DNA from: a virus
Lineage: Duplodnaviria > Caudoviricetes
Virus record (IMG/VR): IMGVR_UViG_3300035187_002838
Location: 1 to 62,927 of that record
DNA: 62,927 nucleotides
Direction: 5' to 3' (one strand)
Shown here: in pieces, positions 3,284-50,228 of the stretch
Layout: each line of letters starts with the position of its first letter
How positions within the stretch are numbered: the first letter of the stretch is position 1
The notes under the pieces: model-generated
Database searches by the model: none
What the model was told of the DNA's origin: nothing
The model's input: only the letters and a program-made list of their open reading frames with translations
Translations under genes and position numbers: made by a program

Positions 3284-4861
3284 ATGGCAGTTGTAAATGC
3301 TGCTCTTGCAAATAAAACTGTCTCAGATCCAAATGCTGAATACGAATCCCTAAGACCTTTATGGCAGAAAAGCCGTGCTATCTGCAGTGGAGAGCGTTTC
3401 ACAAAGGACTTTGACAGTTATTTAGATGTCAGTAATTTTACAAACTTACTGATTCCATTCTCTCCTAGCATGACAGCACAACAATACGGGTTTTACAAAG
3501 CAGAAGCTGAGTTGCCAGGTATTGTTGCGCAATTTGCTAAAATGCTTGTTGGAGGCTTGTTAAGAAAGCAGCCGGTACTATCATTACCTCCGGGAGTACC
3601 TGAAGAAGTTCAAGACTGGATTATGAATCAATTTGGCCAAGATGACTCAAGTCTTATTGGCTTTCTCGATTCAGCATTGTGGGAAGAACTCCAGACAAGC
3701 CGTGCTTGGATTTATGTAGATCACCCTGTAGTAGATCCGGACACTCTTAGTGTAGAAGATAAGCAACTCTTAAAACCATATCCGGTACTCTGGCAAGCTG
3801 ACTCAGTTATTAATTGGAGAACTCGTAAAGATCCTTTTGGTAAGATGATTTTAGATCGTGTAATTGTGCGATCTTATGAAGAGTCTTTTGAAAAGAACGA
3901 GTTCCATCCAGCTTTTAAAGACACGGTTCGTGTGCATGAACTTGATGAATCAGGTTTTTATCAGATTAGAGTATTTCAGCAAAGATCTGATACAACTTCT
4001 GTGCAAGTTGTAAACGGTCAACAGCAAAAAGAATTTTCTAATCGTAAGCCTTCGTTTGAGCTTATAGATACTATTCAAAATATTTTAAATAATGGCGAAA
4101 GGCTTAGGGTAATTCCCGCGTGGCCTTTGAATGGCTCAGTCAATTTATTAGAGCCAATTTTAATGCCTATTATCGATAAAGAAGTCAGCCTATATAATAA
4201 AATAAGTAGACGTAATCATTTGTTATATGGTGCTTCTACTTACACTCCAGTCATCATGTCTGACATGAATGATGATGAATTTGAAGAGGTGGTTAACAAG
4301 GGCTTAGGCTCTTGGTTAAGACTTAGGCAAGGCGATGAGGCAAAAGTTTTAGAAACACCTACAGCAGCTTTACAAGACATGGATAGGGCTATTGCTGCAG
4401 CTATTGAAGAAATGGCAAAGCTTGGCATTAGAATGCTAAGCCCAGAGTCCGCTCAATCTGGTATTGCTCTTGAAATTCGAAATGCAGCTCAAAATGCTCA
4501 ATTGGGTTCTTTGAATACTAAAATAAGCTCTACTTTGAGAGCAGTGATTTGCTTTATGATCAATTGGAGATACAATCTTCAATTGAGACCTCAAGATATT
4601 AACTTTAGTTTGTCTTCGGACTTTAATCCAATACCTTTAGGCGCAGATTGGTTGAGACTTGCCACAGAATGGTATCAACAAGGTCTGATTCCTCGTTCTA
4701 TTTGGTTGATGATTCTCAAGCAAAATGATATGGTGCCTCCTGACTATGATGATGAGGAGGGTAGAATGGAAATCACTAAAGACTTGGATATGGCGCTTCA
4801 AAGACAAAATGAACAATACGCTGATAGCATAGCTTCACAGGAAGGAAATACTAATGGCTAA
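3284..4861 (+). CDS. portal protein (DUF4055-like)
   Basis: 525 aa, start of head module; PY...QADSVINWR, VRVHELD...YQIRVF and SG.A...R patterns resemble this portal family. Confidence 0.8.
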   Translation: MAVVNAALANKTVSDPNAEYESLRPLWQKSRAICSGERFTKDFDSYLDVSNFTNLLIPFSPSMTAQQYGFYKAEAELPGIVAQFAKMLVGGLLRKQPVLSLPPGVPEEVQDWIMNQFGQDDSSLIGFLDSALWEELQTSRAWIYVDHPVVDPDTLSVEDKQLLKPYPVLWQADSVINWRTRKDPFGKMILDRVIVRSYEESFEKNEFHPAFKDTVRVHELDESGFYQIRVFQQRSDTTSVQVVNGQQQKEFSNRKPSFELIDTIQNILNNGERLRVIPAWPLNGSVNLLEPILMPIIDKEVSLYNKISRRNHLLYGASTYTPVIMSDMNDDEFEEVVNKGLGSWLRLRQGDEAKVLETPTAALQDMDRAIAAAIEEMAKLGIRMLSPESAQSGIALEIRNAAQNAQLGSLNTKISSTLRAVICFMINWRYNLQLRPQDINFSLSSDFNPIPLGADWLRLATEWYQQGLIPRSIWLMILKQNDMVPPDYDDEEGRMEITKDLDMALQRQNEQYADSIASQEGNTNG

Positions 4862-5120
4862 AGGCGCTAAAAGTCGAAAAAATGTAGATCCCGAACGATC
4901 TTCTGCTATGAAAGGTAATAATAATGCCTCAAAAAAGAATATCAGCCTGAATAAGGTCATTCTTGCAAATGTTGGAGGTGTAGCTACTGGACTCCTACAG
5001 TCTCCTGCATATTCAGCAAAATCCGCAGAAGTGTACAAGAAGTATGGAGCTGGAAGCATTGGCCATGGGCTAGGCGTAGGCGTTAGACGTTTAACGACAT
5101 TAGACTTTAAAAAATATTAA
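4854..5120 (+). CDS. small basic protein, possible internal virion protein
   Basis: 88 aa, Lys-rich, MKGNNNA motif; GGAAGGA RBS. Confidence 0.55.
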   Translation: MAKGAKSRKNVDPERSSAMKGNNNASKKNISLNKVILANVGGVATGLLQSPAYSAKSAEVYKKYGAGSIGHGLGVGVRRLTTLDFKKY

Positions 5121-5152
5121 AATTTAAGTGTTAACTATAATGAAAGGTAATT

Positions 5153-5491
5153 ATGGCTGGTAAAAAAGGTGCCCCTATGGGCAACAGAAACGCTGCAGGT
5201 ACTGGTGGTGCTAGAACTGCAGTTTTAGGTAGTGTAGTGCCTTTTGGAAGTGTTTTAGGCGGTGCTGTATTAGCTGCTAGTGGTAGAAATAAAAGAGCAC
5301 TTACACGTCATACTACAGTAGCAACTGGTTTAGGCGCAATTGGTGGAGGTCTCGTTGGGGCTGTATCAGGAACCATTGCTATGCCTATTATTGGAACTGC
5401 AATAGGTGGCGTAGTTGGCAGCGCTACCGGTGCGGGTACTAGTTATATTGGCTCTAAAGTAGGCCATTTAATTGGAAGAAAGATTCGATAA
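5153..5491 (+). CDS. glycine-zipper protein with basic N-terminus
   Basis: GAPMGNRNAAG then GxxxG arrays (GLGAIGGGLVGAVSG...IGTAIGGVVGSATGAG). Confidence 0.6.
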   Translation: MAGKKGAPMGNRNAAGTGGARTAVLGSVVPFGSVLGGAVLAASGRNKRALTRHTTVATGLGAIGGGLVGAVSGTIAMPIIGTAIGGVVGSATGAGTSYIGSKVGHLIGRKIR

Positions 5492-5492
5492 C

Positions 5493-5959
5493 ATGGCCGA
5501 AAATCGCATTAATAATCCTCAAGGAAAAATCAGTACACTGGTGCTTCAAGTTCCAACCGCGCCGCATTGCAAATGCAAGGTGGTTATTCTAAAGAATATT
5601 TAGAGTCTAAACGGCTAGCAGCTGAGCAAGCCAAGTATACACAAAGAGAAGCCTTTTACAAATCTGTCGAAACTGGTGTCGAAAAACTAGGTGTTGCTGC
5701 AAAAGTGGCAGGCGGTGTTGGTTTCGTTGCAGGCGCAGCTGTTGGTACAGCCAATCTTATGTTTAGAGAAGGAAGCATACAATCTCTTAGACACGCAGCA
5801 GCCGTAGGCAAGGCCGCAGGAGCTGAACTTCTTTCCCCTAACAGAGTAAACCTAATCGAAAAAGTTCAAAAGACTCCTGAGTTTGCTGATTGGAAAAAAG
5901 CTCAGTCAGCTCAAGCAGATGCTGATTCCGCATATAAGAGAGCTCTTTCTAAATTTTAA
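5493..5959 (+). CDS. hypothetical protein whose likely start (ATG 5493) is offset by a -1 frameshift at the A5 run 5525-5529
   Basis: MAENRINNPQGK in one frame continues as NQYTGASSSNRAALQMQGG in the -1 frame, which is track ORF 5567..5959. Confidence 0.5.
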
Positions 5960-6279: not shown

Positions 6280-9200
6280 ATGGCGAGTAACGCTAATACT
6301 GATATATACGACAGAACAATAAATAGAGCTGCAATGATAAGGCTTTATGAAAAAAGAGTCAGTGACAAGGTTGATTTAATTGTTAACGATCATACCGGAA
6401 GAATAAACGAGCTTCTGAAAAATGGCGACTTGTCTGTAACAGGTCGAAAGAAGCTAGTCGAAGCTATTGATAAAGAACTTCTTAAAACTTATAGAGAAAC
6501 TTTTAACATTACTAAAAGATCTTTGCTAGATCTTGTGACTGACCAACTTTCATATACTTATCAAACTATTGAATCTGCAATGAGTAAAATTTGGCGTACT
6601 GAAAGACCTCAAAAGCGTGTTGCAGAAGACATTGTATTAGAAAGACCATTATATCAAGACAAAACCTTAGCTGCAGGCTGGGCTAGCGTAAGTGCGGCTG
6701 AGAAGAAAAGACTTGATGCTGTTATTCGAAAAGGTATTGCAGAAAATAAAACTATTGATCAAATAGCATTAGAAATCCGTAAGGGAAATATTCATAATAT
6801 AACAAGAGCCCAATCACGAGGACTTGTTATAACAGCCATTACCTCCGTAACATCACAAACTGATCAAGAGGTATACAAGGCAAATCAAAAAGCAATTCAG
6901 GGTTGGCAGTATGTTTCTGTCTTAGATTCCCGGACTACTCCAGTATGCATTCATAGAGATGGTAAAATTTATGACACTACAGATACTGTACATTTACCAC
7001 CTGCGCATTTTAACTGTAGATCCACAACTGTTCCTGTATTTAAATCTTGGGAAGATATCTCAAAACTAGAAGGTGTTGCTCAAATTCGCAGACGTAATAT
7101 TGAAAATTTGAGCAAAGAGCAAATTGCGTATTACGACGGACAGACACCTTTACGTGAATCTTACAATTCATGGTTGTTACGTCAAGATAAAGCAATTCAG
7201 TTAAGGCATCTTGGTGATTATCAAAAGGTAGAGCTGTTTAGATCAGGACAGCTTGAAGTAGATAAATTTACAAATGCTGATGGTAACTCTGTTGGCATAA
7301 AAGAATTAAGAGCTCTTACAGACAGTGGCTATACGCTGCCTAACGACACTAAAAAGTTTGCAATTGCAAAGGAAAAACTAGATACAATGCAATTGGGTGC
7401 AAGTAGTCCCGATGATTTTATCAATGATGAGAAACTTCGAAAAACATTAATAGATTATTACTTGTTACAAAGCGCAGAATTGAACGGGACACTGTCATTA
7501 ACTAACTATCGAGGTGTTCTTACAAATGTTAAACGTGGTGTTAAAACTCGAGTTCTGACGTCTCCGCCTAGAGAAGATCAACTGAAATTTAATCCAATAA
7601 CAGGACGATATGAAGACGTTAGATTATATCAACCAAATTCAGCTGTCTTGGCTAACAACACAAGACTTATCCAAGAAAGTGATAAGTTACTGGACAGAGA
7701 CAGGGAATTTATATTTAAAGTTTTGGATGGTCTTTCTGAGAGGATGAGTGTAAACGAAAGAGCTGTTGTCGCAGACAATCTTCGAATTATCTTTAGCAGA
7801 TACAGAGACAACAAAGAGCCCTGGACAAATTTTAAAGCGGTAGTTCAAGGTCAAATAAAGTTTGATGTAATGAACGTTTCGGATGCTATTGAAACTCAAA
7901 TTCGAAAGGATTCTGATGTTTTAAAGAAGCTACTTCAGGATAACTACTTAGATCCTGTTTTAGGTCCTACACAGTTACAGGAGCTTCATGATGATTTCAT
8001 TTCTAATATTCTTGCAAGAAATAAGTGGGAAGATAAGACAGCTCCTAAAATTGCGCAAGAATTAAGAACAGTATTTGATTACAAGATACCTGCTAAGATA
8101 CTTGGACGAGTTACTGATCGAAATTTACAACAGTTTTATTTGAAATTTGCGCATAGGTTAAGTTTAGCAGACTCCCCTGATAGAGACAGTTTTGCGGTTT
8201 CGTTAGGCAGAGACCTTTACAATCTTGCAAATTTTAATGGAAATCGACGTCAATGGTATGAGCTTGGCATGAAACTCTTAGAAGCTAAAAATGTCAAGAA
8301 ATTCTTTGAAGTTGAAACTTTTGGTGTTCAAAAGAGAAGAATGAAAAGCAGACTAAGCGGTCAATATTTTGGTCCGTACTATGATGCGTTATCCTATAAC
8401 ATTAGAATTGTAGATCCTAGAATTCAAGAGTACGCTAAGCTAAATAGAAAAGTTGAACTCGGTCTTCGAGTTTCTGTAACAGAAGATAAAAATAGACTTC
8501 TATTTAGAGAAGGCTACAAAACATATTTCATTGATAGAGGAATTTTAGGATTAGAAGATACAAGAATTCCAATTACATCAACCAGCAGCTTCAGTGATTT
8601 TCCTGAAGAATTTGTAGACAAAAATCTAGTTGATGCTTTGAATTGGGCTTCCAAAGCTAAGTATAAAATTGACGAAGACTATTTTGATTTTACACAAAAA
8701 TTATTATATTTTGAAGACGACAAAGGTCAAGCCAAAAAGTATAATGATTTGAATGAATATCGAAAATACATTTCCAGTCGTGGCGACGCTTATGAACGTT
8801 TCAAGACTATGGAATGGCTTCGTAAAGATGACAAGGCTTTTAGTAATCACCCTTTTATTGATCATCGAGCACGTATTTATGATCGTGGTTTAATCGGTCC
8901 TCAGTCTGGTGAAACATTTAGACCCTTTTTAAATACGGATGTAGCTAAGAACTTTAGTCCAGAAGATTTTGAGAACTTTCAAGATCAGATCGGATCTTTC
9001 TTAGGAGGACTTAGCGATTACTTTGAGGGAAAGTTTAATTCTCTATCAATCACAGGAAGACAGAAGATAGCAGAAAAGTGGCGTCCTGAGCTTGTTCGCA
9101 TTGGCAATCACATGCTTAGGAAGAAACCAGCAGATATTCGTGCTATTTTAGAATCTGAAATATTTCAAAAAATTGATGGCGAAGAACTTAATAAGTTTTT

Positions 9201-9528
9201 GCGTTTTGCGTTAGAGACTGCTAAAATTGATAATTACTTAGCAACTGACAGTCTCGGTTCGAAGTATTCAGTTAAAAACCTTCAAAGGCTTCGTGATTAC
9301 AAAACAGCGCTAGCTTTGGAACAAGATGCTTCATCTTCTGGCGCTCAGATTATTGCTTTAACAACTCGTAACAAACAGCTAGCAGAGTTAAGCAATGTAG
9401 TTCCTACAAACCAAAAGAAACGTTTGTATGACGAAATTGCAGCATTAACTTATAATGATCCTAGGTTCAGAGAGCTTAATCAAAAATTAGGATTAAATGA
9501 AAAAGATTTGAGAAAAGCTTCTAAGGCT
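6280..9528 (+). CDS. exon 1 of MuF (SPP1 gp7-like) head morphogenesis protein fused to a T7-type single-subunit RNA polymerase
   Basis: MuF signature WQYVSVLDSRTTPVC...PPAHFNCRST; RNAP motifs DHRARIY (T7 DWRGRVY), motif A LEQDASSSGAQ, first half of motif B RKASK. Confidence 0.88.
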
Positions 9529-10387
9529 TAAATTGGGCCTTGTAAAATCGGGTTAATTGCTGGAACAGCCTGCCGGCCAATCAGCAGCCAAGCTTAGAGA
9601 GAAATCTCTTTGAAGGTTCAACGACTAGGATATACCGCCCGTAAGGGAGATGAAATCCGTAGAATGGAAGTCCATTCGAAACGCCCGACACCGAAAGGTG
9701 AAGATATAGTCTGGTCTGCATGGGAACATGCAGGTTATTTATAGATAGGAACTGGAATGGAATATCAGAATCTTTACGTAAACTTGCTTTTAAAGCATGG
9801 CACTGAAGAGAAACCTAAAGGGTATTCAGAACGACATCATATAATTCCAAAATCAAAAGGTGGAGATGACTCTCCAGAAAATTTGATTTATTTGTCGGCT
9901 AGAGCGCATTTAATTGCACATTGGTTGTTATTTAAAATACATAAGTGTGATATGACCGCTAGAGCTTTCTATGGAATGTGCGATACTTATCGAAGGCCTG
10001 AAAGAGGTCGTATAACAAGCCATACGTACGAAGCTGCAAAGAAAGCTTTTAGTATGAACAATCATATGAAATTGCCTAAATACAGGAAGCTGGCCAAAGA
10101 GTCGGCAACTGAGCAATGGGCTAAAAAATATGATGAGATGAAGTCTTCTAATGCATTTATGTTTTCAGACGAAAAACATCCAATGTATATGAAAGGTAAG
10201 ACAGGCGACCTTCATCCACGCTCTAAGGCTGTTATTACACCACTAGGCAGATTTGGCTCAGTTCGAGAAGCAGCTAAAGCACATATGATTTCACACCCTT
10301 TAATTTCTAGATATTGCAAAAGTGCAATACACCCAGAGTACTACTATGAATAACAGCTACAAATAACGAATGTAGCTTAACATTACA
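9529..10387 (+). mobile_element. group I intron (859 nt) carrying an HNH homing endonuclease
   Basis: P1 AAGGCU/GGCCUU with U-G at 5' splice site; P TTGCTGG, Q AATCAGCAG, R TTCAACGACTA, S AAGATATAGTC; P9 CTGCATG-GGAA-CATGCAG; removal restores motif B RKASKA|QNMVTFYG. Confidence 0.9.
9757..10353 (+). CDS. intron-encoded HNH homing endonuclease
   Basis: HHIIPKSKGG...NLIYLSARAHLIAH HNH core; C-terminal FGSVREAAKAHMIS NUMOD/HTH-like module; sits after P9. Confidence 0.85.
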   Translation: MEYQNLYVNLLLKHGTEEKPKGYSERHHIIPKSKGGDDSPENLIYLSARAHLIAHWLLFKIHKCDMTARAFYGMCDTYRRPERGRITSHTYEAAKKAFSMNNHMKLPKYRKLAKESATEQWAKKYDEMKSSNAFMFSDEKHPMYMKGKTGDLHPRSKAVITPLGRFGSVREAAKAHMISHPLISRYCKSAIHPEYYYE

Positions 10388-11818
10388 CAAAACATGGTGA
10401 CCTTTTACGGTGCTGGTGAAAAAACCAGCGGCCTAAATGTAGAAGGTAAACTGTCTAAGGTTTTAGATAAGCAAGAGAATGTTTTAGTGGTCAAGGCTTC
10501 TGAAAGAGATGTAGTTCTTAATGAGATTTCTGCAAGAATTGCAAGATACGAAAAATTTGATCCAGAAACTGCCGAGGAACTTCGACAATTACGACAAAAT
10601 GTCAGAGACATTTTTAATAAAGGCTTAGATCCTGGCGATGAAATTTTAGACCAGCTTTATTTTCTAGAACCTAAAACAAAAGAACTTGTAGAAAAGCTAT
10701 CTCAGTCGTACGAGAGAGTAGTTACACCTGATGATTTTAAAGCAATTGCTAGAATCATGAGTGAATACTTATCAGAGCAAGTCCCTATACTTAAAGATTT
10801 TACCAGGTATTTTGGCAGGCTAGCCGAAGATTATTTGGCAAATGCAAAACCTTCAGGCAGTAATTTTGACTGGGAATCCATTGCAAAAACACAGCTTGTC
10901 GGCACTAAGAAAAAAGGTTATGTGTTACCTGATAATATAAGCAGATTGTTAGGAATAAAAGCTGGAGAACCTGTTTCAGAAAAGATTCTTAAAAGATTCG
11001 GATTTTGGGAGCCTAATGGTAACTTAGCGCAGCTGATTTTTGGTGTAGACTCTCCTGAATACCGTAGGACTGGAGCTAAGTACTTTAAGACTGAAGTTGT
11101 TGTTCCAACAATTGATATTGAAAAAGGTGCTTTAGCTAAAGAAGTTTCCCTCAGTGGGTTTGAAGTTTTTAAGGCAAATAAATTACCTAAAAGCTGGACT
11201 AACGTTCCTTGGGTAAATTTTGATGGAAAAATTATTGAACAAAATTTTACACAGTCTTTTGAAGAACGGCTTGTTTATAAGGATAAATACGGTAACTGGA
11301 CTACTAATATACTTCAATTACCGCAGAAAACCGAGATATCGTGGGTAGATACGCTGATTAACAAGTCAGGAAAGATTAATGACATTGCTGATTTTACGCG
11401 TGCAAGAACAGCATTCGCAGTTAATGGCAATCACTCTAATGATGCTGTAATTGTTAAAAAGTTTCATCTTTGGGGCAAGAAAACAGGTGTTACAACTTCT
11501 ACTATTCATGATGCTTTCTTTACTAATGCCGCAGACATGCTTACTGCAAGGTCAGCCTTGAAAGAGATTTATGCAGATGTATTAGATAGGAATGTTATCA
11601 AGATGACTCTAGATGAAATGAAAGCCAGAGGCTTGCCTAAGGAGTTGTATGATAAGTATCTTGAAGAAGCTATCGAAAAAGGTTTAATACCTATTCCAGG
11701 AAAATCTAGAGTTGGTGATAAAATTTTAAATGAAAAAGACATACTGAATAGAAAAGATATTTTAAAGGAAATTCCTAAAGGCTTTTCCAATGACTATGGA
11801 TGGTACGGTGTTGGCTAA
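10388..11818 (+). CDS. exon 2 of MuF-RNA polymerase (rest of motif B, fingers, motif C); spliced product 1559 aa
   Basis: QNMVTFYGA completes R-x3-K-x7-YG; NGNHSNDA (T7 NFVHSQDG); motif C TIHDAF. Confidence 0.88.
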   Translation, partial: QNMVTFYGAGEKTSGLNVEGKLSKVLDKQENVLVVKASERDVVLNEISARIARYEKFDPETAEELRQLRQNVRDIFNKGLDPGDEILDQLYFLEPKTKELVEKLSQSYERVVTPDDFKAIARIMSEYLSEQVPILKDFTRYFGRLAEDYLANAKPSGSNFDWESIAKTQLVGTKKKGYVLPDNISRLLGIKAGEPVSEKILKRFGFWEPNGNLAQLIFGVDSPEYRRTGAKYFKTEVVVPTIDIEKGALAKEVSLSGFEVFKANKLPKSWTNVPWVNFDGKIIEQNFTQSFEERLVYKDKYGNWTTNILQLPQKTEISWVDTLINKSGKINDIADFTRARTAFAVNGNHSNDAVIVKKFHLWGKKTGVTTSTIHDAFFTNAADMLTARSALKEIYADVLDRNVIKMTLDEMKARGLPKELYDKYLEEAIEKGLIPIPGKSRVGDKILNEKDILNRKDILKEIPKGFSNDYGWYGVG

Positions 11819-11841: not shown

Positions 11842-11923
11842 AGGTGAGAATCTCCACAGATAACATCTGATTTTAAAATAAAGATTGTATCTTTATTAAA
11901 TGAGTCGTACTCAAGGAAACAAA

Positions 11924-12607
11924 ATGTCAACTGATACAAATCAAGAAGATCAAAACAACGTCGATGACTCTTCATCTGACAAGAGCACAACCGAGACTAA
12001 CAAGGACACTGCAACAGGCTCAGCAGACCCTGTTGAGAAACTTATAGAATCACGTGTTCAAGAAGCTCTTAAGGATATTAAGCTAAAACTCGACAAAGCA
12101 TACAGCGTCAGAGATGAAGCTTTGCGCAAAGCTGCTGAGATTGAGCAAGCTAAGAAACAAGAAGAGATCAAGCGACTTCAAGAGGATGGTAAGCATAAAG
12201 AAGCACTTGAACTGCAACTTGCAGAAGAAAAGGCACAGAGAGCTGCATATGAAAAACGTGTCGTAGAACTAACACGCGACATGGACCTCAAAAATGCGCT
12301 AAGTACTTACTCTTTCAAAAATGAAAATGCCTTCAGTATGGCATATCGTGAAATTGTAGATCAACTCGCCCAAGATGACAAAGGAATTTGGAGACACAAA
12401 TCGGGTGTATCTCTTAAAGACTTTGTAAAGCAATTTGCAGATGATGAAAACAATGCTTTCTTGCTGAAACCTAAAGTATCTTCTGGTTCTGGCAGTTCGA
12501 CAACGAAGGTTAAAGATTCTTCGAGTGGTATGTCCGGAAAGTCTATTTTCGAATTACCGCAAGACGAAGTTTTGAAACTCGCTAGAGAAGGCAAATTGAG
12601 AAAATAA
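11924..12607 (+). CDS. capsid scaffolding protein
   Basis: Acidic N-terminus, long coiled coil, GSGS linker near C-terminus; directly upstream of capsid gene; AAGGA RBS before ATG 11924. Confidence 0.75.
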   Translation: MSTDTNQEDQNNVDDSSSDKSTTETNKDTATGSADPVEKLIESRVQEALKDIKLKLDKAYSVRDEALRKAAEIEQAKKQEEIKRLQEDGKHKEALELQLAEEKAQRAAYEKRVVELTRDMDLKNALSTYSFKNENAFSMAYREIVDQLAQDDKGIWRHKSGVSLKDFVKQFADDENNAFLLKPKVSSGSGSSTTKVKDSSSGMSGKSIFELPQDEVLKLAREGKLRK

Positions 12608-12633: not shown

Positions 12634-13821
12634 ATGACTGTTCGTGTTAACGTTGCTGGTGCCGACAATTTTGTTCTTCAGGAAGCAATTAGCGCTTACT
12701 CTGACGAAGCATATACCACAGCTAGAAAGCTTTCTGGTACTGGTATTGTTGGTTCCAATCCCCTTATTGATACTTCAACCGAAACTTTCGTCGGTCAAGT
12801 CCGTTGGTACAAGCCGCTGAATCCTACCATTAACGTTGCATCCTTAACGGACTCGACGGATGGTACAGGTACTTCTTACAGCTCTGAGTATGTTAACTAT
12901 GTTAAGACTGTGCGTACGCATGGTGCTAACAAAGTCAATATGCAACAAGTTGTCACGCAAGTGGACGGCCTTGCCAAGATCGGTCGTGACTTTGGTGAAA
13001 CAAAAGCTCAAGATGAGCACAATGCAGTGCTGTCTGTGCTGCGTGGTGTTGCTATTTCTGAAGCACTTAATGGTTGTGCTGCAGGTTCTGGCAACACAGG
13101 TCTTGGCGGTCAAACTTTTGATAACGATCCGACCAATAAGCGTTATGGTTTCTATGTAGACCTCGGCGCAAACAAGCCTATTGTTGATGCAACCGCTGCT
13201 GTTCAAGGTGCTGCAAGAGCTGAAGGTTTCTTGAGAGCCTTTGGCATGGCTTATAAGGACTATGAGCCTGACTATGCTTATCTTGTCTGCTCTCCTGAAA
13301 TCGTGGCTTCTTTGCGTTCTGCGAATCTGGTTGATAGCACTACCGTTGTCGATGGTAATATTACTTTCAACACAATCTTCCAAGGTAAGTTCCGTCTGAT
13401 TCAGACTCGTGCTTCCCAAGGTTTTAGCACAGCTGAGCTGACAAAACTCAATACTGGCGCTGGTGTTGATATTGTCGGTACTAAGACTTCCTTTATTGTT
13501 CTTCCTGGTGCACTGGCTATGGAACCTCTTGCTGTTCCTGACAGTGTTGAAATTGAGCGTAAAGCTGCTGCTTATAAAGGTGGTGGTACTACCGCTGTGT
13601 GGTATCGTTGGGGCTATGTTGTGCATCCTGCCGGCTACAATTGGGCTGGTTCGCAAGACGCTTTCCCTTCTGATACAGACTATGTTAGCGTCTTGGAAGG
13701 CACTACCCAGAAGGCTCTGGCAAGTGTCGCTTCTGGTACGTTGGCATCAACTGGCGGTGTATGGGCACGTAAAGCTAGCTCTGCGCTTAGCTTGGGTATT
13801 CTGCCTGTGTTCCATGCCTAA
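12634..13821 (+). CDS. major capsid protein
   Basis: 395 aa after scaffold; C-terminal IERKAAAYKGGGTTAVWYRWGYVVHPAGYNW typical of siphovirus coat proteins. Confidence 0.82.
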   Translation: MTVRVNVAGADNFVLQEAISAYSDEAYTTARKLSGTGIVGSNPLIDTSTETFVGQVRWYKPLNPTINVASLTDSTDGTGTSYSSEYVNYVKTVRTHGANKVNMQQVVTQVDGLAKIGRDFGETKAQDEHNAVLSVLRGVAISEALNGCAAGSGNTGLGGQTFDNDPTNKRYGFYVDLGANKPIVDATAAVQGAARAEGFLRAFGMAYKDYEPDYAYLVCSPEIVASLRSANLVDSTTVVDGNITFNTIFQGKFRLIQTRASQGFSTAELTKLNTGAGVDIVGTKTSFIVLPGALAMEPLAVPDSVEIERKAAAYKGGGTTAVWYRWGYVVHPAGYNWAGSQDAFPSDTDYVSVLEGTTQKALASVASGTLASTGGVWARKASSALSLGILPVFHA

Positions 13822-17000: not shown

Positions 17001-20000
17001 ATGTCTGGAATTCAAATAGATGTAAATGCAAGGACTTCGAAATCCGAACAAGACCTTGCAAAAATAAATCAATCGCTCAAAAGTATTGAGCAAAGTACAA
17101 CCAGTGCATCCAGAGCATTATCGTCTACCTTTATCGGATTAGGTACAGCTTTAGTTACTGGCGGTGCATTAGTATCACTTAGAAACATCTCTACTGAATT
17201 TACCAATCTTGAAAACAAGATAGCATTGGTAACTGGTAGAACAGAGCAGCTAGTTATAACACAAACTCGGCTTTTCAAAATTGCTGAAGAAACCCGTGGC
17301 AGCCTTGCTGGGACTGTCACTGTATTTTCTAGCTTTGGAAGAGCTCTTAGAGATGCGGGCGCTTCTACTGAAAATATCCTTAAAGCTACAAAGACCGTTC
17401 AACAGTCTATTGCTATTTCAGGCTCTAGTGCAGAGTCTGCTGCCGCAGCTTTAGTCCAGTTAGGGCAGGGTTTATCTTCAGGTGTTTTAAGAGGCGAAGA
17501 ATTAAACTCAGTTTTAGAGCAAACACCTAGACTTGCTCAAGCTATTGCCGATGAGCTTAAGGTAAACTTAGGTCAATTAAGACGCTTAGGCGCAGAAGGC
17601 CAACTTGTAAGCGACGTTGTGTTTAAGGCGCTTTTAAACCAGTCGCAAAAGATCAACAAAGAATTCCAAGTACTTGCTCCGACATTCCAACAAGCAAGTA
17701 ATGCTTTAACAGATTCTATAAAGATTTATGTAAATGAACTTGATAAAGGCTTAGGTGTTTCAACGACACTAGGTAAGCTTACATTTAGTCTAGCTAAATC
17801 AATAAAAGGCGCCTCTGATAACGCATTTGAGCTTGGAAACAATATTAGAATTGCATTCAACCGAAACAAGACAACTGCGTTATCGGTGATACAACCTATT
17901 GGCAGATCGCTTGTAGAGCTGTCAAAACAATTTCTACAGATTGTACCGGGACTCAATTTAACAAGAACTCTTAAAGGTGATTTTAGAGAAGCACTTCGAT
18001 TCATTGATAAAGAATTTCTTGGCGGTTTGATAACCAGATTTAATCAGTTTAAGTTTATTGATCTGATCTCTGTAGAATCAAATGTCGAAAAAGCTATAAG
18101 AAAACTTAAGCGACTAAGCCCGACTTATTGGGCCGCTAGTGGTTTTGATGTTAAGACAATTCAACAAGTTTTAAGTACAGAAAATATAAGGTTATATGGC
18201 GCAGCTTTTACTGAACTTGCAGATGCCTTAAAAGGAAATACAGAAGGTATTGGAAACGCTTTTACAAACTTAGCTCGAAAAGTTGACTTTTCATTTAAGG
18301 CAATTTCAAGGTATTTAGGCTTTCGTGTTGACACTATAATTGCTTTTTCACGAGGTCAATTAGATACGTTCTTTGTAACACTCTCAGAAATTGTTCGCGG
18401 TATTACGGGTGTTAGGATAAAATTCTTTGAACTTAAAAGTTTATTTATTAATGTTGCGCAGCCAGGTATAGAAGCTTTTGCAGATGCTGTAATAGACTCA
18501 TTCAACGCTCTACCAGAAGGGTTTTTAAACTTTGTAGATAATGTTGCAAAAGGTTCTGTAAGACTCATTCAAATTGTTGGACAAATAACAAGAGAACTTT
18601 TGTTCACAGAATTAAATATTAACTACAAAGAAGTTTTAGACACCATCTTAAATTACATTACAAGTTTTTCTGATTCTGTCGCAAATCTTTTAAGCTTTGA
18701 TAGTTCTTTAGATAAACTTCAAAACTTTGGAAATAAAGTTATTGAAATTTTTAGAGAAATTTATGATAAAGTTATTGGAAATTCGTGGTGGACGGATACA
18801 ATAAATAACGTAATTCAAACTTCAGAAACACTTTGGGATAGAACATCTAACGGGCTAAGTCGTTTTAAGAAAAATGTAATTGGTGTTTTTAAGGATATTT
18901 TTACAAACAAAACATCTTTTGATTTTGAAATTAGCAAAAAGGTTTCATTTGATGACGTATTTGGTGGCCTTACAGCCGACGGTCTTGTAAAAACCTTTGA
19001 TGTTGTTGTTGAAAAAGCTACAAAGGTATTTGAGAAATTTTTCGAAACATTTCCAAATCTTGCAAAGGTAGCTTTGACAGGTATTGCTGGCGCACTAGTG
19101 TACAGTTTATTTCCGCCTTCTGTATTAAAAACTATAATTTTAACAAGTATTGTAAGCAGTCTTGCAACCAATTCAACACTCCTTGCAGAAAAATTCGGCG
19201 CTGCTATGACAGGAGGTAGTTTTGCTTCTACTCTTGGATATGCCATAGGTCGTGGTGCGGGATTTTTTATTAGTAACTTTATTAGAGACATTCCTCAAAT
19301 TTTAAATACAATTGGCGGTTTCGTTTCATCTCTTTTTAGAGGTATTACAGAGCAATTGCCAATAATTGGAAGTGCAATATCATTTATATTTTCGTTAGCA
19401 TCTGCAGTAGGGGCTGCAGGACCTTTAGGCATTATTGGAACTTATTTACTCGGCAAGAATTTAAATGTGTTTTCTTTAATTGCAAAGATTGAACCTATAA
19501 AAGGTCTTTTAGAATTCTTCGATCTTAAACTCGGAAAAGATGACGACAAAAAGAAGAATAAAAGCCCAGGTGTGACAGGCGCTATTTTTAGCTATCTGTT
19601 TGGAAACTTTGGTAAAGAGCGCACTATTGCTAGTATCTTAGGTGTTTTAGATCTTTTAGGTACTTTTGAATCCTTATTTGCAAATTCACCACTAACGCAA
19701 ATGGCTGCCAGAGGCGGTATCTTAGCCACTATTTTGTATGGCGAAGAAGCTACTACAATGTTTAAAAACGGTTTTACCAAATTTGTTGCAAAACCTCTCG
19801 GAGATGCTTTAAGGAAATTTTCAGAAACTAAGGGTGGTGGCATTAAGACTATTTACGATATTATTTTTGGATCCGGCGATCCCCTCGCATTACCGTCTAC
19901 GTTTGCTGAAAGAATTTCTCTTGTACTTAGACCGCTAATTGACAAAGTTACAGCAAATATTGTAGACTATGCATCGCCTAAGTTGAAAGCTGGCTATGAT

Positions 20001-23000
20001 TTTTTAGAAAAACTTTTCTTAGGTCGCAGACCTAAAAGAACAATTGCAAAGATTAATCAAGAACTTCGGGCTGTTTATGAATCAGTGGCTAAGACAGTTA
20101 CAGCATACGCTTCTAAGTTCATATCACCTTTTACAAATATTTTTAAATTTGGCAAAGGCCAAAAAGATGATGCTTCTGGAGTCGTTGACTTAGTCAACAA
20201 AACGGGTGCTTCAATTTCAAGCAAGGCTACAGAAGCTGCTTCAAAAGCTAGTGAAGCAATAGGCAAAGCAGCTAAAGAGTCATCTAAAACAATCGATAAA
20301 ATTGCAGGTGAAACCGGATTATTAGGCCGTCTTTTTCTAGGAAAATACGGTAAAGCAATTATTATAGGTTCAATACTTTCTGTATTTTCTGCACTTGCTC
20401 TTGCTAATGTGCAAGCGGAAAAAGACCTAAAGTCACCTTTTGATACATTAATTGAAGATGTAAAGAAAATTGACTTTTTGGCACCCTTCAAGGCACTTTC
20501 GACAGAAACACTGTTAAGTATAATTCCTGCTCTTATCGGTGGCTTCCTCTTATTTAAGAATAATATTCTGACTGTGTTTGGCGACATTAAGAGAGCAGCA
20601 ATGAGCACGTTTGCTTCGGTTGCTGCTGCAGCAGGTGCTACTGGTTTAGCTAACATGCTTGGTGGTGTTGCTGGCGGTGGTGGTGGACGTGCGGCACGTA
20701 ACTCACGTACGTTGGCTGTTGGAAGTATTGGAATTGCCGCAGGTGCGGGTGTTGGAGCCGCATTAATTGACAATATAACAACAGGTATTTTAGTAGGCGG
20801 TGCTTTACTTACTTTCATACAAGCTTTGCCTGCAAAGTTAGCCTTAGGTATTATCGGCGGTATTAAAACAGCCTTGTTAGCAACACTTAGTGCTATTTTT
20901 AGCATTCCAACCTTAATTGGCGCTGTTGCATTGACTGCAATAGGTGCGGCAGGTGTTTGGTTATTCGGTCCTAACAAGGAATTCTTTAAAGATTTAGATT
21001 TAGCAATTGACAAGGCAAGGGAGCTTGTCGGTCTGAGGCCTAGAGAAAAACCTTCAGATCGCGGTTTAGCAAAGTCCGATGAAGCATTTCTGAAATCCAG
21101 AAGTATTGAAAGTACATTTTCATTAAAGCAAGTTAACTTACAAAATCTAGACTCAAAAGACATACAGAAGCTTAAGGAAAAGACCGCTGAATATTCTAAA
21201 GCCATTGACAAGGCAAGAGAGGAAGAAGAACAACGTGGCTCTATTACAGACGAAACTCGAAAAGAACTAGAATTATTGGATGCTGGTCTTAAAAACTTTA
21301 CTGGAAAGTTAGCAGTTAAATCTACTAAATTTTCAGGCTCTATGTCTGAATTTATTCAAAACCTAACTAAAGTTGAAGGTGGAAGTAGGTTTGGAGATTT
21401 TGTTTTAAGATCTGAACAATTTAGAAATGATATAATCTTAGGTATTACAAGAGCTGCAGTTCAAGCTAGAAGATTTTTAGATCCTACTAAAGAAGGTAAA
21501 GCAGCTGCTACAGAGCGACTTGCTGAACTAGATTTTGAAGCTAAAACAATTTTTAATGCATTCTACAGACCTTTGTCTGAAACAGAAAAACAGCTCCTTA
21601 ATCTTGCAAAAGCTGCTGAAGCTGTAACAATAACTAATGAAGACTTAGAGCAAAGTCTGCTCAAGGCAAGACAGTTGTATGAGTCTGAAGCTGATAGGGT
21701 TCGGCTGCAACAAGCAACGCCCTTTGGAGGGTTTAAACAATTAACAGCTGCTGATACAGGATCGCTTACAATTCTAAGAGCAGATTACGATTTATTACTC
21801 CGTCAACGAGTTGCATTTGATCGTGTTAGAAAAGCTGCAAATGCTTACCAAGCAGACTTAGCCGCTTTAGGGAATACATTTAAGGATGTTTTAGGCTTAG
21901 ACGTAGATTTTAATGATATTTTTGCTGTAGATCAATCTGACTTAAAACGTATAAAAGATTTACAAGGTGAAGCTAAAAGGCTTGCAGAACAAATAAAGGA
22001 CACCTCTGATGTTGGACGTCAAAATGAAATTACTTTAAGAATTACTGAAATTAGAAGACAAGTTGTACAAATTGTCGAAAATGCTAAAGTCGAAGTTTCG
22101 CCGTTAAGACCCCAAGTTAGAGCTAGAGAACTTGCTGAAAAAGCTGGAATTATTAACAGCGATCAATTTTACGAAGGCTTAGGAGACGAAAGTGCAAGAG
22201 CTTTAATAAGAACATATCAAAATATTATCGAGAAAATAGATAATGCTAAAATTAATCCTTTAAAGCCTTTTGATATTTTCAGTCCAACTGACAAATTAAG
22301 ACCGGTTGAAACTTTAAAAGGTGCTCCTCAACAATCTTTCGGACAATTGCAAGCAGACATTCGAGCTCAACAAGAAGCAGCTGTAAGACAGGCTAAAGAC
22401 GCTGCTAGAGGCACTAAGGCTGAATTGGTGGCTTTACAACAAGATGCTGAAAAATTCGGTATAAATTACGAAAGTTTAATTACAAAGTACGGCATAAAAA
22501 GTTCTATCGGTGTTATTCAAAATCTTTCAAATAAGTTTAGAGAACTGGAAATTGCAAAAACAAACAGGCAGGATAGCAGAGTTGCAATACTAACTAGGCA
22601 AATCGGATTATTAAAAGAAGAGATTAATAAAGTACCTCTAGACTTCCAAGCTGCATTGGGTTATCTAAGCAGCGGCACATTTTCAATTACTGCCGAAGAT
22701 TTGTTCCAAACGCCTGGTATTCTTAAAGACTCGTTAGCCCTTGGCAGAGTATTTAAAAATGTTGAGGATAAGTTTAGACTGATGACTACAAATGTTTCTG
22801 AAATTGAATTTCAAGAAGTTTTTAAAGAGAAGATCGAGGCAAGTCGTAAAGTATTTGATTTATTCCTTAAAACTATTGGGAACACTCCTGCAAAGTTAAC
22901 GCAAGCATTTGAAAGAACTTTTGGTGTAAATCTTTTAGAAACCACATTGCCATCTGAAGATCTTTTAGATTTTGCAGTAAGTGTTGAGAGGATTAAGCTT

Positions 23001-26000
23001 GAACTAGAAGACCTTGCAAAACGAGGTGGTACACGTGAAGAGTTTGCATTCATCACATTGCTTCAACAGCAACTGAATAAAACTATTGAGTTTGCAAAAA
23101 ATAAATTACCTAAGACATTTGAGCAAATTTTTAATAGAGTAAACTCAACCTTAGAATTAAATCTGACTGAAGCTCAACTTATTCGATTACCTAAAGATAC
23201 TCAAAAGTCTTTACAAGACTATGCTAATTATATTCAATCAAGCTTAGAAAAGATTAGGAAATCAACTTTACCGGCGCTTAAAGAAACTCCTGAAGAGTTT
23301 TTTAAAAGTTTAGATGAGATTCTTCGTAAAACTAGTTTTGTAAAATTCTTTACAGATTTTAGCAAGTCGTTTGCTAAAATTGCATTTGAAGGTTTTGTAG
23401 ATCAATTCGGAAGATTGAAAGATCTCGTTTCAGATCTGAAGTTAGAAAAATCCGAATTTGCACAGTTACCTAAGCAGATAAGAGTTCAACTTGCTGAAGA
23501 TGCAACATTAGTAAGAACCTTTGAAAATTTAATTGAAACTCTTCCAGGTATTACAGAAGAACAATTAAGTATTTTAAGCGAATTATCGCCGACAGGTAGT
23601 AATCTAAAAGCTGTTTTTGATGCATTTGCAAGCTCTGTGTTAGCAAGCTTTAATACGTTGCCAGAAAATGTTAGAAGATCTATAGATGCTTTGCTAAAAC
23701 CAGAAACTGATCCTATTGTAAACCAAATTAGATCTTTAGATAATGTTTCGACAAGACTTGACAGTCTTAGAATTGCAATTGACAATCTTACTGCAAAAAT
23801 TTCAGCACCAACAGGTTATGCAGATGGTGGTTATGTAACAGGCCCTGGCACAGGTACTTCAGATTCTATCCCGGCTGTATTGTCTAACGGTGAGTTTGTT
23901 GTTAATGCTGCAGCAACTCGTAGACATAAAAAGTTACTCGAAGAACTGAACAATAATAGCAATGTTTTTAAAAATACCTTTAATACACCTGAGGATATTA
24001 TTCAGAAGAGTCTTGAGATAAATTCTGAAAAGAACCTGTTAAAAGAACTTACATCTGTTCAAGTCGGTTCTGGGAATCTGAGCTTAGCCAAATTCGGAAA
24101 GTCATTTGGTCTTAAGTGGATGTCTAAGTTTGCAAAAGGTGGCGGAATAAAAACGTTTGGATCTCCTTTTGCAGATAGAGTAGAATACGACAAAGAAAAA
24201 CTTAAATTGTTAAATACACCTTATTTTAATTTTGAAAGTTTGTATGAAATTGTTTCACAAACTGAAAAACAACTTTCTGGTGTAGATATTAGTTCTAAAA
24301 AGGATTCAGTAAAGCTTATTGATATACTTACAGGAGACCTTGATAAAAAATTAAAACTTATTGAATCCCTTGAAACTAAAGATTCAAAACTATTTGAAAT
24401 CGGTAAATCAGGTGCATTTGATACTAGTCGTATACTTGATTATAGAATTAACAGGCCTAATGATATTATTGAAACAAACGGTTTAACAGCCTTGACTAAC
24501 GGCCGTGGAGGACTTAAATGGCAGTTAACAGATGATCCTTTTGAGGCTTATTTCAGGCCTGGTTTCGACATGAAGTACCCGAGCCGATACATCTCAGCCC
24601 AAACTTACAGTTTAAAAAATTCAGAAAAAGAATTCTTGCTACCACGAATGGATACTAGCAAAAGTATTCCCGATCTTTTTGCTAGATACGCAATTTCGAA
24701 TCACGAGCTAGGTCATTATTTTAGCCAAAGAAGAACATTGCCAAATGTTGCCGATTTATTTGATCCTCAAAATTTACCTAAATCATTTCAGAACTTAGAT
24801 TATTTTATGGAACTTCGAAATGTACTTAAAGGATATTCGCATGAAAGATACAATTTTGAAGACGTAACTAAAGACTCTTTTTACGAACGATTACTTTTAG
24901 ATGCAGCCTACGTTGATAAAACAGCTGTTACGGAATCGAGTAATTTAAATTTTAGAAAAGGCCTTCAAAACAATCTTTATAGTTTTAAATTATTTGAAGA
25001 GCTGACTGCCTCAAATATAGCCTCGCTTATAGATCCTACAAAAAGTTCTTGGCTAGTTAATCAAAATGCCTTAAGAACTTACCAAGTACAACAACTCAAT
25101 AATTTAGGTTTGTTAAGCCTAATAGAAATGATTTCTAAAAAGGAAAATTATGAAGGATTTTTCGAAATGTTTGAAACACCTAAGATTAATCCTTTTAGCA
25201 CACAACGCCAAGTTAACAGTATGGTTGGTATTCTGTCGAGTAAGACTCAAGATACTTCTACTATTTTTGAAAATTTGAAAAGACTAGATAAAAATAAATT
25301 CGCTTTGCAAACCGATGCTGCAATAGAATATTCTACAGAAGCTTTTAAAGCAATTGAGGAAGAGATCAAAGAACATAGTCGAGTTGGCAACAGCCTTGTA
25401 ACTAAGACTCTGTTTATAGATCCTTACGATCCATATATAGAAAGTTTAAAAGCTCCTGACAAAGCAAGTAAATCAAAAAACACTAAACTAAGCCAATACA
25501 GCCCTCTTCTTGGCCTAGGTGTTTCGACAGGTATTGCTGGATTTGATTTTCTAAATAATGCTAGCGGAAGTGAATTATACTCTGATACTGTGGGTATTGC
25601 ATCTGTTTTAATGAGACTTAGAAATGCTACTGCGACAGGTCTTTTAACTTACGCACCAGAGGTTGCAGATGCTACTTTGAAAAAGAATAATCCAGAGCTT
25701 TGGAAACTCCAACAAGAAACTGACTTGATTAGACAAGCGTCAGAACGAGCTAAAATCAGAAGTTCTGTTGTAGATTCTAAAATGAAAGTACCTAACTCAT
25801 CTCAGAAGAAGCTTTTAGAGCTTGTTCAAGAACCGACTAAGTCTGACAGTATTAGACAAGGCTTTAACAACTTTGGTTTAAATTTTACAGATGATTTAAT
25901 AAAAAGAATGGGTGATCCTGCAAATATATTCTTAAGCAATAGAGCTAAAAAGAGAGCAAACGGTGGTATATTAGAAGGTCCTGGGACAGGCACTTCAGAT

Positions 26001-36841: not shown

Positions 36842-36874
36842 TGCGGAAAAGTCGGTATCTTATATGATAAGCAA
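36842..36874 (+). promoter_or_regulatory. putative early promoter, class A, copy 1
   Basis: TGCGGAAAAGTCGGTATCTTATATGATAAGCAA; near-identical copies at 40898 and 41515. Confidence 0.65.
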
Positions 36875-37279: not shown

Positions 37280-37299
37280 AACTTTGAAGGAATCTTCAA

Positions 37300-37605: not shown

Positions 37606-37641
37606 CCAATGAGATTTTTTTTTTTTCAAAGGAGTTTTAAA

Positions 37642-40897: not shown

Positions 40898-40930
40898 TGC
40901 GGAAAAAGCGGTATCTTATATGATAAGCAA
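40898..40930 (+). promoter_or_regulatory. putative early promoter, class A, copy 2
   Basis: TGCGGAAAAAGCGGTATCTTATATGATAAGCAA. Confidence 0.65.
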
Positions 40931-41514: not shown

Positions 41515-41540
41515 TGCGGAAAAAGTGGTATCTTATATGA
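41515..41540 (+). promoter_or_regulatory. putative early promoter, class A, copy 3
   Basis: TGCGGAAAAAGTGGTATCTTATATGA. Confidence 0.65.
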
Positions 41541-43333: not shown

Positions 43334-43585
43334 GTGGTAAGCAAGAAAAGGGCAATTAAAAAAAGGAGAAAATGTGTCGCCGAAATCTAATTATAAAGTT
43401 ATGCATTTTCTTTTGATTGTAATTGTCTTGTTCTTATTTTCCCGACTGTCTTTTGATGCCCTGATTTTAGGCGCCCTTGTGATTTATTTATTGCAGCGAA
43501 CAGGTAAGAAAGATGATTAAGTTTTTGATTGGACTTTATCTAATTTATCTTATCCCTAAAATAATATCTAAAATAAAGGAACTTG

Positions 43586-49786: not shown

Positions 49787-50228
49787 TTGGAACGATATCT
49801 TTACATACAAAGACGGACAGCTTATCTGGAAAATATCACCTTCATACAAAATCAAAGAAGGTGCTGTTGCTGGGAATAAAACGGGTCCAGGTTATTGGCA
49901 AATATGTTTTAAGGGTAAGTTTTACAAATTACATAGAATTATTTGGCAAATGTTCTATGGTGAAATTCCACAGGACTTAGAGATAGATCATATTGATCGT
50001 GACAAAGACAACAATAGGATTGAAAATTTAAGGCTTGCAACACGCTCTGAAAATGCAAACAACAGAGATGCTCAATCTAATAATAAACTAGGTGTAGCTG
50101 GAGTTGTAAAAGATGGAAATAAATTTGTAGCTTATATCAGAATAAACAATAAAACAGTTAATCTAGGTAGGTTTAATACTATTTTAGAAGCAAGCTCAAC
50201 TTATCAAAAGGCAAAACTCGAGATTTAA
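49773..50228 (+). CDS. free-standing HNH endonuclease with AP2-like C-terminus
   Basis: HRIIW...IDHIDRDKDNNRIENLR; NLGRFNT..EA. Confidence 0.85.
   Translation: MMCINWNDIFTYKDGQLIWKISPSYKIKEGAVAGNKTGPGYWQICFKGKFYKLHRIIWQMFYGEIPQDLEIDHIDRDKDNNRIENLRLATRSENANNRDAQSNNKLGVAGVVKDGNKFVAYIRINNKTVNLGRFNTILEASSTYQKAKLEI

Follow-up and report, generated by a model that had tools for sequence, protein, structure and literature searches.

A MuF head protein joined to a T7-class RNA polymerase in a long-tailed lake phage, a candidate virion-delivered transcriptase

The window analysed here is the whole 62,927-nt stretch (positions 1 to 62,927) of the IMG/VR record IMGVR_UViG_3300035187_002838, from a lake-water tailed phage. 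Positions 6280..11818 (+) form a single gene of two exons, the 1559-aa product of which joins a MuF/SPP1 gp7-type head protein to an RNA polymerase (RNAP). Judged from its sequence and from a model of its fold, the C-terminal part is a complete T7-class RNAP, apparently active, that forms a deep branch of the class. We consider it fairly probable that this is a late gene and that the spliced MuF-RNAP fusion is packaged, ejected and used to transcribe the early genes, a canonical RNAP following. An earlier sequence-only reading had proposed both the architecture and the delivery. The architecture was fully supported, and the delivery function, which is argued by analogy, was partly supported: it is plausible and has been strengthened. 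Feature coordinates are given in Table 1.

The catalytic motifs of single-subunit RNAPs on which the sequence-only reading was built (DHRARIY and motifs A, B and C) were all located and aligned to the T7 motifs. Motif B (RKASKA/QNMVTFYG) spans the exon junction, and exon 2 also includes NGNHSNDA at aa 1429-1436. The family was represented by an alignment and profile of 28 members with identity down to 20% (A2). In this alignment the R and G of the D-x2-GR block, the D-A-S of motif A and the Lys of motif B (K1082, corresponding to K683 of A2) were invariant, while the Tyr-Gly of motif B and the Asp of motif C were at least 90% conserved. The Pfam family PF00940 was recognised in exon 2 (27.8 bits against a cut-off of 22, at aa 320-413 of open reading frame (ORF) 3) and fell under the cut-off in exon 1 alone (15.6 bits). 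The expected Pfam order of MuF followed by RNA_pol was thus recovered, with PF04233 on exon 1 and PF00940 on exon 2. Both families were also present in a 1559-aa intron-less ortholog, P0232, in which PF00940 reached 45.1 bits. (Labels beginning with P denote related proteins from protein collections, and those beginning with L denote relative loci in IMG/VR.) Exon 2 also matched phrog_414, RNA polymerase (E 3.4e-8). Single-sequence phmmer searches of each exon product against PDB sequences gave chance-level matches only. The A2 profile, searched against PDB, matched T7 RNAP (1aro, E 2.6e-11), with colinear stretches at T7 residues 399-490 (including DWRGRVY), 527-578 (motif A) and 698-860 (HSQD and motif C). 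It also matched mitochondrial RNAPs (1.8e-6) and N4 RNAPII (2.5e-4).

A fold model was made from the intron-less L003 allele with the A2 alignment as input, using the residues that correspond to window aa 400-1559; exon 2 is 99% identical between the two. The AlphaFold2 model of this 1159-aa RNAP part had a mean predicted local distance difference test score of 80.9 and a predicted template modelling (TM) score of 0.77. In the model, the chain is a T7-type right-hand fold with the N-terminal domain present. The sequence-only reading had staked the assignment on an RNAP-fold match, and T7 RNAP was the top Foldseek match in PDB (E 8.4e-18, probability 1.00, 1061-1217 aligned columns, target-normalised TM 0.46-0.57). 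Yeast and human mitochondrial RNAPs were also matched at E about 1e-17 over more than 1000 aligned columns. In BFVD the best match was A0A7S5FRK7, a 1463-aa DSS3-type protein (TM 0.76). T7-like phage RNAPs came next (E 1e-20 to 1e-13), with N4-type virion RNAPs (5.6e-13 and weaker) below them. The model contains a low-confidence insertion of about 110 aa (residues 843-952). A linker of about 290 aa belongs to the fused enzyme.

The N-terminal part is a head protein by two profiles, in agreement with the MuF/SPP1 gp7 domain first read over about 350 aa. PF04233 was found on aa 146-250 (E 4.5e-12, 47.1 bits against a cut-off of 29.6) and phrog_241, ‘head morphogenesis’, on aa 1-348 (E 7.9e-64). 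The LD..T..C / PP.H..CRS core of the domain was invariant in 27 sequences. The start at 6280 is backed by a conserved N-terminus, M..NANT.IYD..DRAAMIRLYE, which 25 of the 28 listed relative loci have in full. ORF 1 runs for more than 700 residues downstream of the MuF domain, and exon 1 terminates in ...DLRKASKA. As had been read, the gene lies between portal (phrog_145) and scaffold (phrog_206) genes. The order portal, fusion, scaffold, coat is found both here and in the roseophage DSS3_VP1, with the caveat that three small ORFs separate the portal gene from the fusion gene here. MuF-type proteins are expected to dock on the portal. The tape measure protein (PF20155), 3453 aa in length, marks this as a long-tailed phage, in line with the siphovirus assignment.

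The polymerase was said to continue once an intron is removed, and this was confirmed. Rfam family RF00028, the sole Rfam family in the whole window, was found at 9467-9733 (89.3 bits against a gathering score of 50), and the exons join to 1559 aa (1083 plus 476 codons), the total originally read and the length of P0232. The intron opens with an in-frame UAA and closes on A. The junction was placed at 9528/10388 because the intron-less P0006, P0232 and L003 read straight across it, and the homologous intron of L054 agrees. Intron-less orthologs read RKASKAQNMVTFYGAG across motif B, and P0006, P0232 and L003 carry the uninterrupted ...DLRKASKAQNMVTFYGAG...; P0006 and P0232 matched at 98% identity within the protein-search region. 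The spliced product was identical to P0232 at 1457 of 1559 positions without gaps (93%). By inspection, P1 pairs AAGGCU (9523-9528) with GGCCUU (9536-9541), placing U9528.G9536 at the 5′ splice site, and P10 pairs UUG (9533-9535) with CAA (10388-10390), the first bases of exon 2. An identical P1 was present in L054, L074 and L076. The P1 proposed by Rfam (9471-9492, about 50 nt upstream) was rejected and the intron ends were re-derived, since it falls inside coding sequence that is conserved in intron-less orthologs. An intron end at 9733, where the Rfam model ends, was also rejected, as the frame is closed right after it and the intron ORFs of EBPR siphovirus 1 and L054 sit beyond the core. 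The HNH ORF follows the ribozyme core and precedes the 3′ splice site, an arrangement shared with the introns of those two relatives, and the ORF inside the L054 intron is homologous to it.

Introns were not restricted to this phage. At motif B, 67 of 80 IMG/VR loci were uninterrupted and three were unresolved. Seven loci had a group I intron after ...AUGGU, the EBPR site (L016, L017, L027, L031, L041, L060 and L077), and one (L054) had an intron at the window's site, after GCU. The remaining two (L074 and L076) combined an ORF-less intron of the window type with a second intron after ...ACCUU, the two being separated by a mini-exon of about 18 nt. Three insertion sites (after GCU, AUGGU and ACCUU) thus lie within 18 nt of motif B codons, a clustering that is usual where introns home to the best-conserved stretch of an essential gene. 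As L003 shows, some members of this phage population have the intron and others lack it. A megablast search with the gene against the phage collection gave matches in 16 unrelated phages, limited to some 40 nt of the intron core.

The survey of phage databases that the sequence-only reading had called for showed that the fusion recurs, in DSS3_VP1 and DSS3_PM1, in EBPR siphovirus 1 and in metagenomic relatives. Among 50,697 deposited phage genomes, the polymerase part was found in four records: EBPR siphovirus 1, DSS3_VP1 (two records) and DSS3_PM1. More than 1000 other phage genomes matched the MuF part only; the Pelagibacter phages Kolga and Aegir came closest. In a 90%-clustered protein collection, in which 8000 candidates were scored, 429 proteins matched at E<=1e-3. 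The best 120 of these 429, all at least 69% identical, comprised 83 with both PF04233 and PF00940, 34 with PF04233 alone (28 of them 1065-1152 aa long, the size of the exon-1 product), two with PF00940 alone and one with neither. A 50%-clustered library of 1.84 billion proteins was searched with the polymerase part of exon 1. It returned 107 matching representatives, 94 of them at E<=1e-10, and no canonical free-standing RNAP at E<=1e-3. In every full-length representative (1411-2073 aa) the match started at residue 362 or later, and a MuF domain was found at about aa 140-245 in all six divergent representatives scanned. The fusion is kept down to about 20% identity, and it is common in aquatic viral metagenomes. 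A search of genome contigs with P0003 as query gave 67 pattern matches, none of which was confirmed as a relative, and neither a prophage copy nor a hint at the host. Database names cover the head part at most (‘SPP1 gp7 family head morphogenesis protein’, ‘minor head protein-like’, ‘head protein’ or ‘hypothetical’), so that annotation-based surveys miss the polymerase. In L067-L082 (e.g. L068:6007-8085), P0110 (1775 aa) and P0010 (1699 aa), the C-terminal half of the polymerase carries an in-frame extension of about 140-220 aa. An intein or other Pfam domain was considered as an explanation for the L067-L082 and P0110 extension and was rejected, since no such Pfam match was obtained.

Shortly before the replication genes (those for family A DNA polymerase, primase-helicase, ribonucleotide reductase and ligase) lies the gene for a second, canonical T7-like RNAP, which we propose as the middle and late polymerase. 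The fused and canonical enzymes could be aligned by hhalign (E 1.1e-7). They are only about 18% identical, and an origin of the fused RNAP as a recent duplicate of the canonical one was therefore rejected. Orthologs of the canonical RNAP were found in DSS3_VP1 (W01:42595-44628, E 1.4e-125) and in a complete 70-kb relative, G001 (77% identity). No match was found in EBPR siphovirus 1, which is a partial record.

Upstream of the canonical RNAP gene, among small ORFs, are three copies of a promoter-like motif. The window contained three matches against none in 100 shuffles. The motif, GCGGAAAA-N3-GGTATCTTATATGA(T/A)AAG, spans 25-31 nt; its length and its ...TATATG ending resemble T7-class promoters. 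G001 also has three copies (34540, 35537 and 54319), which are 86-90% identical over 29-33 nt. When the three window copies were aligned with the two G001 copies upstream of the RNAP gene, 22 of 26 core positions were invariant and the flanks had diverged. Sigma-70-like sites in the 35-44 kb region numbered 18 against an expected 15.5 +/- 3.4, a count to be read with the provision that the host promoter type may differ. Hairpin-plus-T terminators were enriched in the same region (27 against an expected 7.4). A crude 12-mer search of intergenic DNA gave no convincing genome-wide second promoter family.

From these elements the following sequence of events can be proposed. The fusion would be made late, as a product of the structural module, and the MuF domain would bring a few copies into the procapsid at the portal, as for other MuF/gp7 proteins with C-terminal cargoes. 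With the first DNA, the fusion would exit the capsid via the long tail and, in the new cell, would transcribe the early genes without host RNAP. Early transcription would probably start from the three conserved T7-promoter-like sites at 36.8-41.5 kb and would lead, directly or through other early products, to the canonical RNAP, which would next transcribe the middle and late genes, the fusion gene among them. The support is circumstantial and consists of the retention of MuF, the conserved catalytic residues, the presence of a second RNAP, the three promoter-like motifs and the lack of enrichment of sigma-70 sites. We lean slightly further, to the view that virion-delivered transcription arose a second time within the T7 class, through a complete single-subunit RNAP on a MuF carrier. 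It would be the entry strategy of a very large and ecologically abundant group of aquatic long-tailed phages, comprising the freshwater clade to which this phage belongs and the marine Naomviridae with deoxyuridine-containing DNA (dU-DNA), with a three-promoter early regulon, a second RNAP and large independence from host RNAP from the very start of infection.

Once ejected, the fusion might serve mainly as an entry motor, by transcription-driven genome entry, or as a primer-maker, and not for early mRNA synthesis. The anatomy would be the same. T7-class RNAPs, including mitochondrial RNAP, prime replication, and T7 RNAP and N4 virion RNAP (vRNAP) drive the entry of part of the genome by transcription. 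Promoters would be needed equally in that case, and the functions are not mutually exclusive. The pairing with a second RNAP, as in N4, fits a transcription cascade better, and the phage's own Toprim primase-helicase (53135..54775) argues weakly against a primer role. We regard a main role as motor or primer-maker as unlikely.

Several points weigh against delivery for early transcription. Packaging and ejection are presumed for every member of the family, and the main text of the description of its only cultured members, DSS3_VP1/PM1 (PMC8323127), includes no virion proteome. A 175-kDa protein would have to traverse a very long tail, given the 3453-aa tape measure protein. The promoter-like sites could serve the canonical RNAP, early transcription being left to the host enzyme as in T7 or Xp10, and the sigma-70 scan is weak evidence, as the host may use another promoter type. 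Two of the 107 representatives, P0172 (785 aa) and P0174 (812 aa), open with a Met where the polymerase core starts and have no MuF domain; each could be a split or an unfused form, or part of a gene that is broken further upstream. Finally, base 10387 is A and not the omega-G of a group I intron, so correct splicing, and hence an intact polymerase, is not assured in this phage.

The last point raises the prospect of a defective allele, in which the terminal A blocks ligation or G10375 is used instead, adding four residues (LNIT) to the motif B helix. In L054 the homologous intron ends in ...AACAG, on G, and the P7 strands are identical to those of L054, without a compensating change in the G-binding site. 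From the in-frame stop at 10373-10375 to the ATG, the sequence has no G other than G10375. The A was also found in contigs X3 and X4 from two other lake-metagenome runs of different studies, which showed no differences over 10096-10700 and 10156-10700. It is thus not an error of a single assembly, and the variant persists in nature. No intron-less joint was detected in those metagenome contigs examined. Apart from this, both exons are intact, with 93% identity to the intron-less ortholog, and P1 and the 3-bp P10 fit the canonical junction. The intron may splice with its terminal A, may use G10375 (adding LNIT) or may fail. A defective allele seems to us quite improbable.

It could also be argued that the polymerase is not delivered at all, MuF serving head assembly and the polymerase, possibly after cleavage, acting as a late RNAP in the producing cell or being discarded. 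The position of the gene within the late structural module is compatible with this, and many head proteins are proteolytically processed. However, a canonical RNAP is already there for late transcription, and the linkage to MuF, kept in six of six divergent representatives and 83 of the 120 proteins listed, is hard to explain if it is irrelevant. Pfam and PHROG scans of neighbouring ORFs detected no prohead protease, the small ORFs at 4854..5959 being unassigned. We think it doubtful that the polymerase stays behind, and packaging followed by ejection remains the reading we prefer.

Table 1. Features of the fusion gene and of the genes and sites related to it (window coordinates).
Feature	Position	Strand	Details
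Portal gene	3284..4861	+	phrog_145 E 2.6e-56; Pfam DUF4055 E 6.3e-10
ORF 1	6280..9531	+	1083 aa
Exon 1	6280..9528	+	1083 codons: MuF, linker, RNAP N-terminal domain, palm, fingers to half of motif B
MuF / SPP1 gp7-type head morphogenesis domain	6280..7323	+	aa 1-348
DHRARIY (D-x2-GR-type motif)	8860..8880	+	aa 861-867; aligns with T7 RNAP DWRGRVY
Motif A DASSSG (catalytic Asp)	9325..9342	+	aa 1016-1021; aligns with T7 DGSCSG
Motif B, first half RKASKA	9511..9528	+	end of exon 1
Group I intron	9529..10387	+	859 nt; ribozyme core about 9529-9733, HNH ORF in 3′ extension, short 3′ tail
ORF 2	9757..10353	+	198 aa
Intron HNH homing endonuclease ORF	9757..10353	+	198 aa; PF01844 E 1.7e-5
Exon 2	10388..11818	+	476 codons plus stop; QNMVTFYGAG (motif B second half), fingers, long beta-hairpin insertion, motif C, C-terminus
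ORF 3	10394..11818	+	474 aa; opens MVTFYGAG
Motif C TIHDAF (catalytic Asp)	11501..11518	+	aa 1455-1460; aligns with T7 IHDSF
Scaffold gene	11900..12607	+	phrog_206
Major head protein gene	12634..13821	+	phrog_247
Promoter-like motif copy 1	36843..36867	+	GCGGAAAA-N3-GGTATCTTATATGA
Promoter-like motif copy 2	40899..40923	+	GCGGAAAA-N3-GGTATCTTATATGA
Promoter-like motif copy 3	41516..41540	+	GCGGAAAA-N3-GGTATCTTATATGA
Canonical T7-like RNAP gene	43583..45838	+	751 aa, TTG start; PF00940 E 2.2e-62; phrog_414 E 9.5e-107

Some further features were recorded around the fusion gene. Its leader (6155-6238) forms a GC-rich, long imperfect hairpin with a minimum free energy of -66.5 kcal/mol (z = -4.8), which sits in the 158-nt spacer ahead of the start codon and matches no Rfam family. 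A similar element was present in L016 and L017, while most relatives had a short spacer only; in several, the fusion gene appeared by eye to lie directly behind the portal gene. The tape measure gene (17001..27362) contains three internal copies of a 98-nt repeat, and implies an unusually long tail. A portal homolog, P0319, is 67% identical and is assigned by one source to ‘Flavobacterium sp.’. Together with the GC content of the window (34-47%), this label is a weak hint at the host group. The sequencing runs carrying the window sequence are lake-water metagenomes, and no RNA run was found among them.

The presumed early region contains repeated elements. Promoter-like motif copies 2 and 3 are preceded by a conserved hairpin motif, AGACCYGAGCAGGTCT, at 40844 and 41460. 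The approximately 475 nt that follow copy 3 (41541-42015) are ORF-poor and relatively GC-rich and had no Rfam match at gathering score; they could be a non-coding RNA. Two families of hairpin-bearing intergenic repeats were identified, one at 37213-37281, 37771-37839 and 38125-38193 and the other at 39103-39176, 39582-39655 and 40560-40633. Their hairpins, which are strong, are GGCCCUUCGGGGCC and GAAGCCA...UGGCUUC, and the units precede small ORFs of the region. Paralogous small ORFs were also noted (36951-37133 and 37863-38045). Runs of T of 13 to about 30 nt occur at 37610-37627, 38664-38682, 42588-42610 and 43305-43335, several of them right behind terminator-like hairpins and right ahead of ribosome-binding sites. 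In the replication module there are two free-standing homing endonuclease genes. One is an HNH_3 gene (49746..50228, E 1.2e-22) that overlaps the DNA polymerase gene at its end; the other, of the SegE-like GIY-YIG type, lies at 52421..52945 (E 7.5e-19).

Packaged RNAPs are textbook rarities, known from N4-like podoviruses, crAss-like phages and some jumbo phages. If the proposal is right, long-tailed phages join this list by way of a MuF-tethered T7-class enzyme, and MuF carries phage information-processing machinery, beyond toxins. It would then offer a modular and easily evolvable route to host-independent early transcription, any enzyme placed behind MuF being injected, and would explain how Naomviridae begin transcription on dU-DNA. 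A compact, deeply divergent single-subunit RNAP with a candidate 25-nt promoter is also of interest as an orthogonal transcription tool. The interest is high, as the family is large and ecologically prominent and as phage and host, DSS3_VP1 and Ruegeria pomeroyi, are both available in culture for a direct test. Naomviridae are reported as abundant in seawater (PMC12669031). Searches of the open full-text literature, a body that leaves subscription journals and supplements outside, turned up neither a MuF-RNAP fusion nor a long-tailed phage with a packaged RNAP. No such fusion is described in the accessible parts of PMC5512222, PMC12697855, PMC12669031 and bioRxiv 10.1101/2025.10.29.685362. In the main text of the Naomviridae description (Rihtman et al. 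2021, PMC8323127), the terms ‘RNA polymerase’, ‘RNAP’, ‘MuF’ and ‘minor head’ occur zero times.

The closest functional parallel is the unrelated phage N4, which packages and ejects a giant vRNAP for its early genes (PMC5512222 and the abstract of PMC13434306). Like N4 gp50, the fusion is a single-subunit RNAP from a late gene, with capsid carriage and ejection shown for N4 and proposed here. The canonical RNAP would correspond to N4 RNAPII, as a second T7-class phage enzyme acting at the next stage. N4 has three early promoters; few early promoters are likewise suggested here, by the three conserved candidate sites. The two systems differ in build. The N4 vRNAP is about 3500 aa long, is fused to zincin-like peptidase domains and is encapsidated by its own C-terminal region (accessible part of PMC5512222), and N4 is a podovirus, whereas the protein described here has 1559 aa, an N-terminal MuF domain and a long-tailed carrier. 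By sequence profile and by fold, the fused enzyme is nearer to the T7 and mitochondrial RNAPs than to the N4 vRNAP. The A2 profile search of PDB returned no N4 vRNAP chain at E<=1, and Pfam scans of the fusion and its ortholog detected no peptidase family. Profile and modelled fold thus indicate that the fused RNAP is not a member of the N4 vRNAP clade, to which N4-like (pro)phages alone contribute according to the accessible part of PMC5512222. That it works like the N4 vRNAP is our inference by analogy. The two-polymerase logic of N4 would then have been reached via a different packaging module and a different branch of single-subunit RNAPs.

In its build the fusion resembles Mu gp30/F, SPP1 gp7, the MuF polymorphic toxins and the ‘polyvalent proteins’, in which a gene adjacent to the portal gene encodes an N-terminal MuF domain and a C-terminal enzymatic passenger. 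MuF/gp7 proteins are described as belonging to the heads of phages with a portal-terminase system, and as having repeatedly acquired enzymes that presumably enter the cell together with the DNA (PMC5512222, accessible part). The cargoes named in that part are RNases (PBECR), 2H phosphoesterases, RelA/SpoT, phosphoribosyltransferases and zeta-toxin-like kinases, and no RNAP is among them; the passenger here is a polymerase of about 1200 aa. With T7 RNAP and T7-like RNAPs, including that of the siphovirus Xp10, the fused enzyme shares the whole-chain fold and the D-x2-GR, A, B and C motifs, at about 12% identity to T7 RNAP in a structure-based alignment. Those enzymes are free-standing early or middle products and are not packaged, unlike the arrangement proposed here. 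The RNAPs of crAss-like phages and of AR9/PBS1/phiKZ-type jumbo phages are two-barrel, multisubunit-type enzymes with a fold unrelated to that of the T7 class. These phages also combine a packaged early RNAP with a second, non-virion RNAP.

The nearest systems of all are the orthologous fusions. EBPR siphovirus 1 gp47 and gp49 are 58-59% identical to the window protein and are also split by an HNH-bearing group I intron, inserted 11 nt further downstream. In the roseophages DSS3_VP1 and DSS3_PM1 (Naomviridae), the orthologous fusion is the ‘minor head protein-like protein’, which in DSS3_VP1 is 1463 aa long, uninterrupted and about 30% identical. The DSS3 phages have dU-DNA; no dCMP-deaminase-family or HD-hydrolase match was found by Pfam in the 30 larger ORFs of the window, and dU-DNA is thereby neither supported nor excluded for the lake phage. 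Taken against all these systems, the fusion would combine two known kinds of protein, the virion RNAP and the MuF cargo, and is not categorically new.

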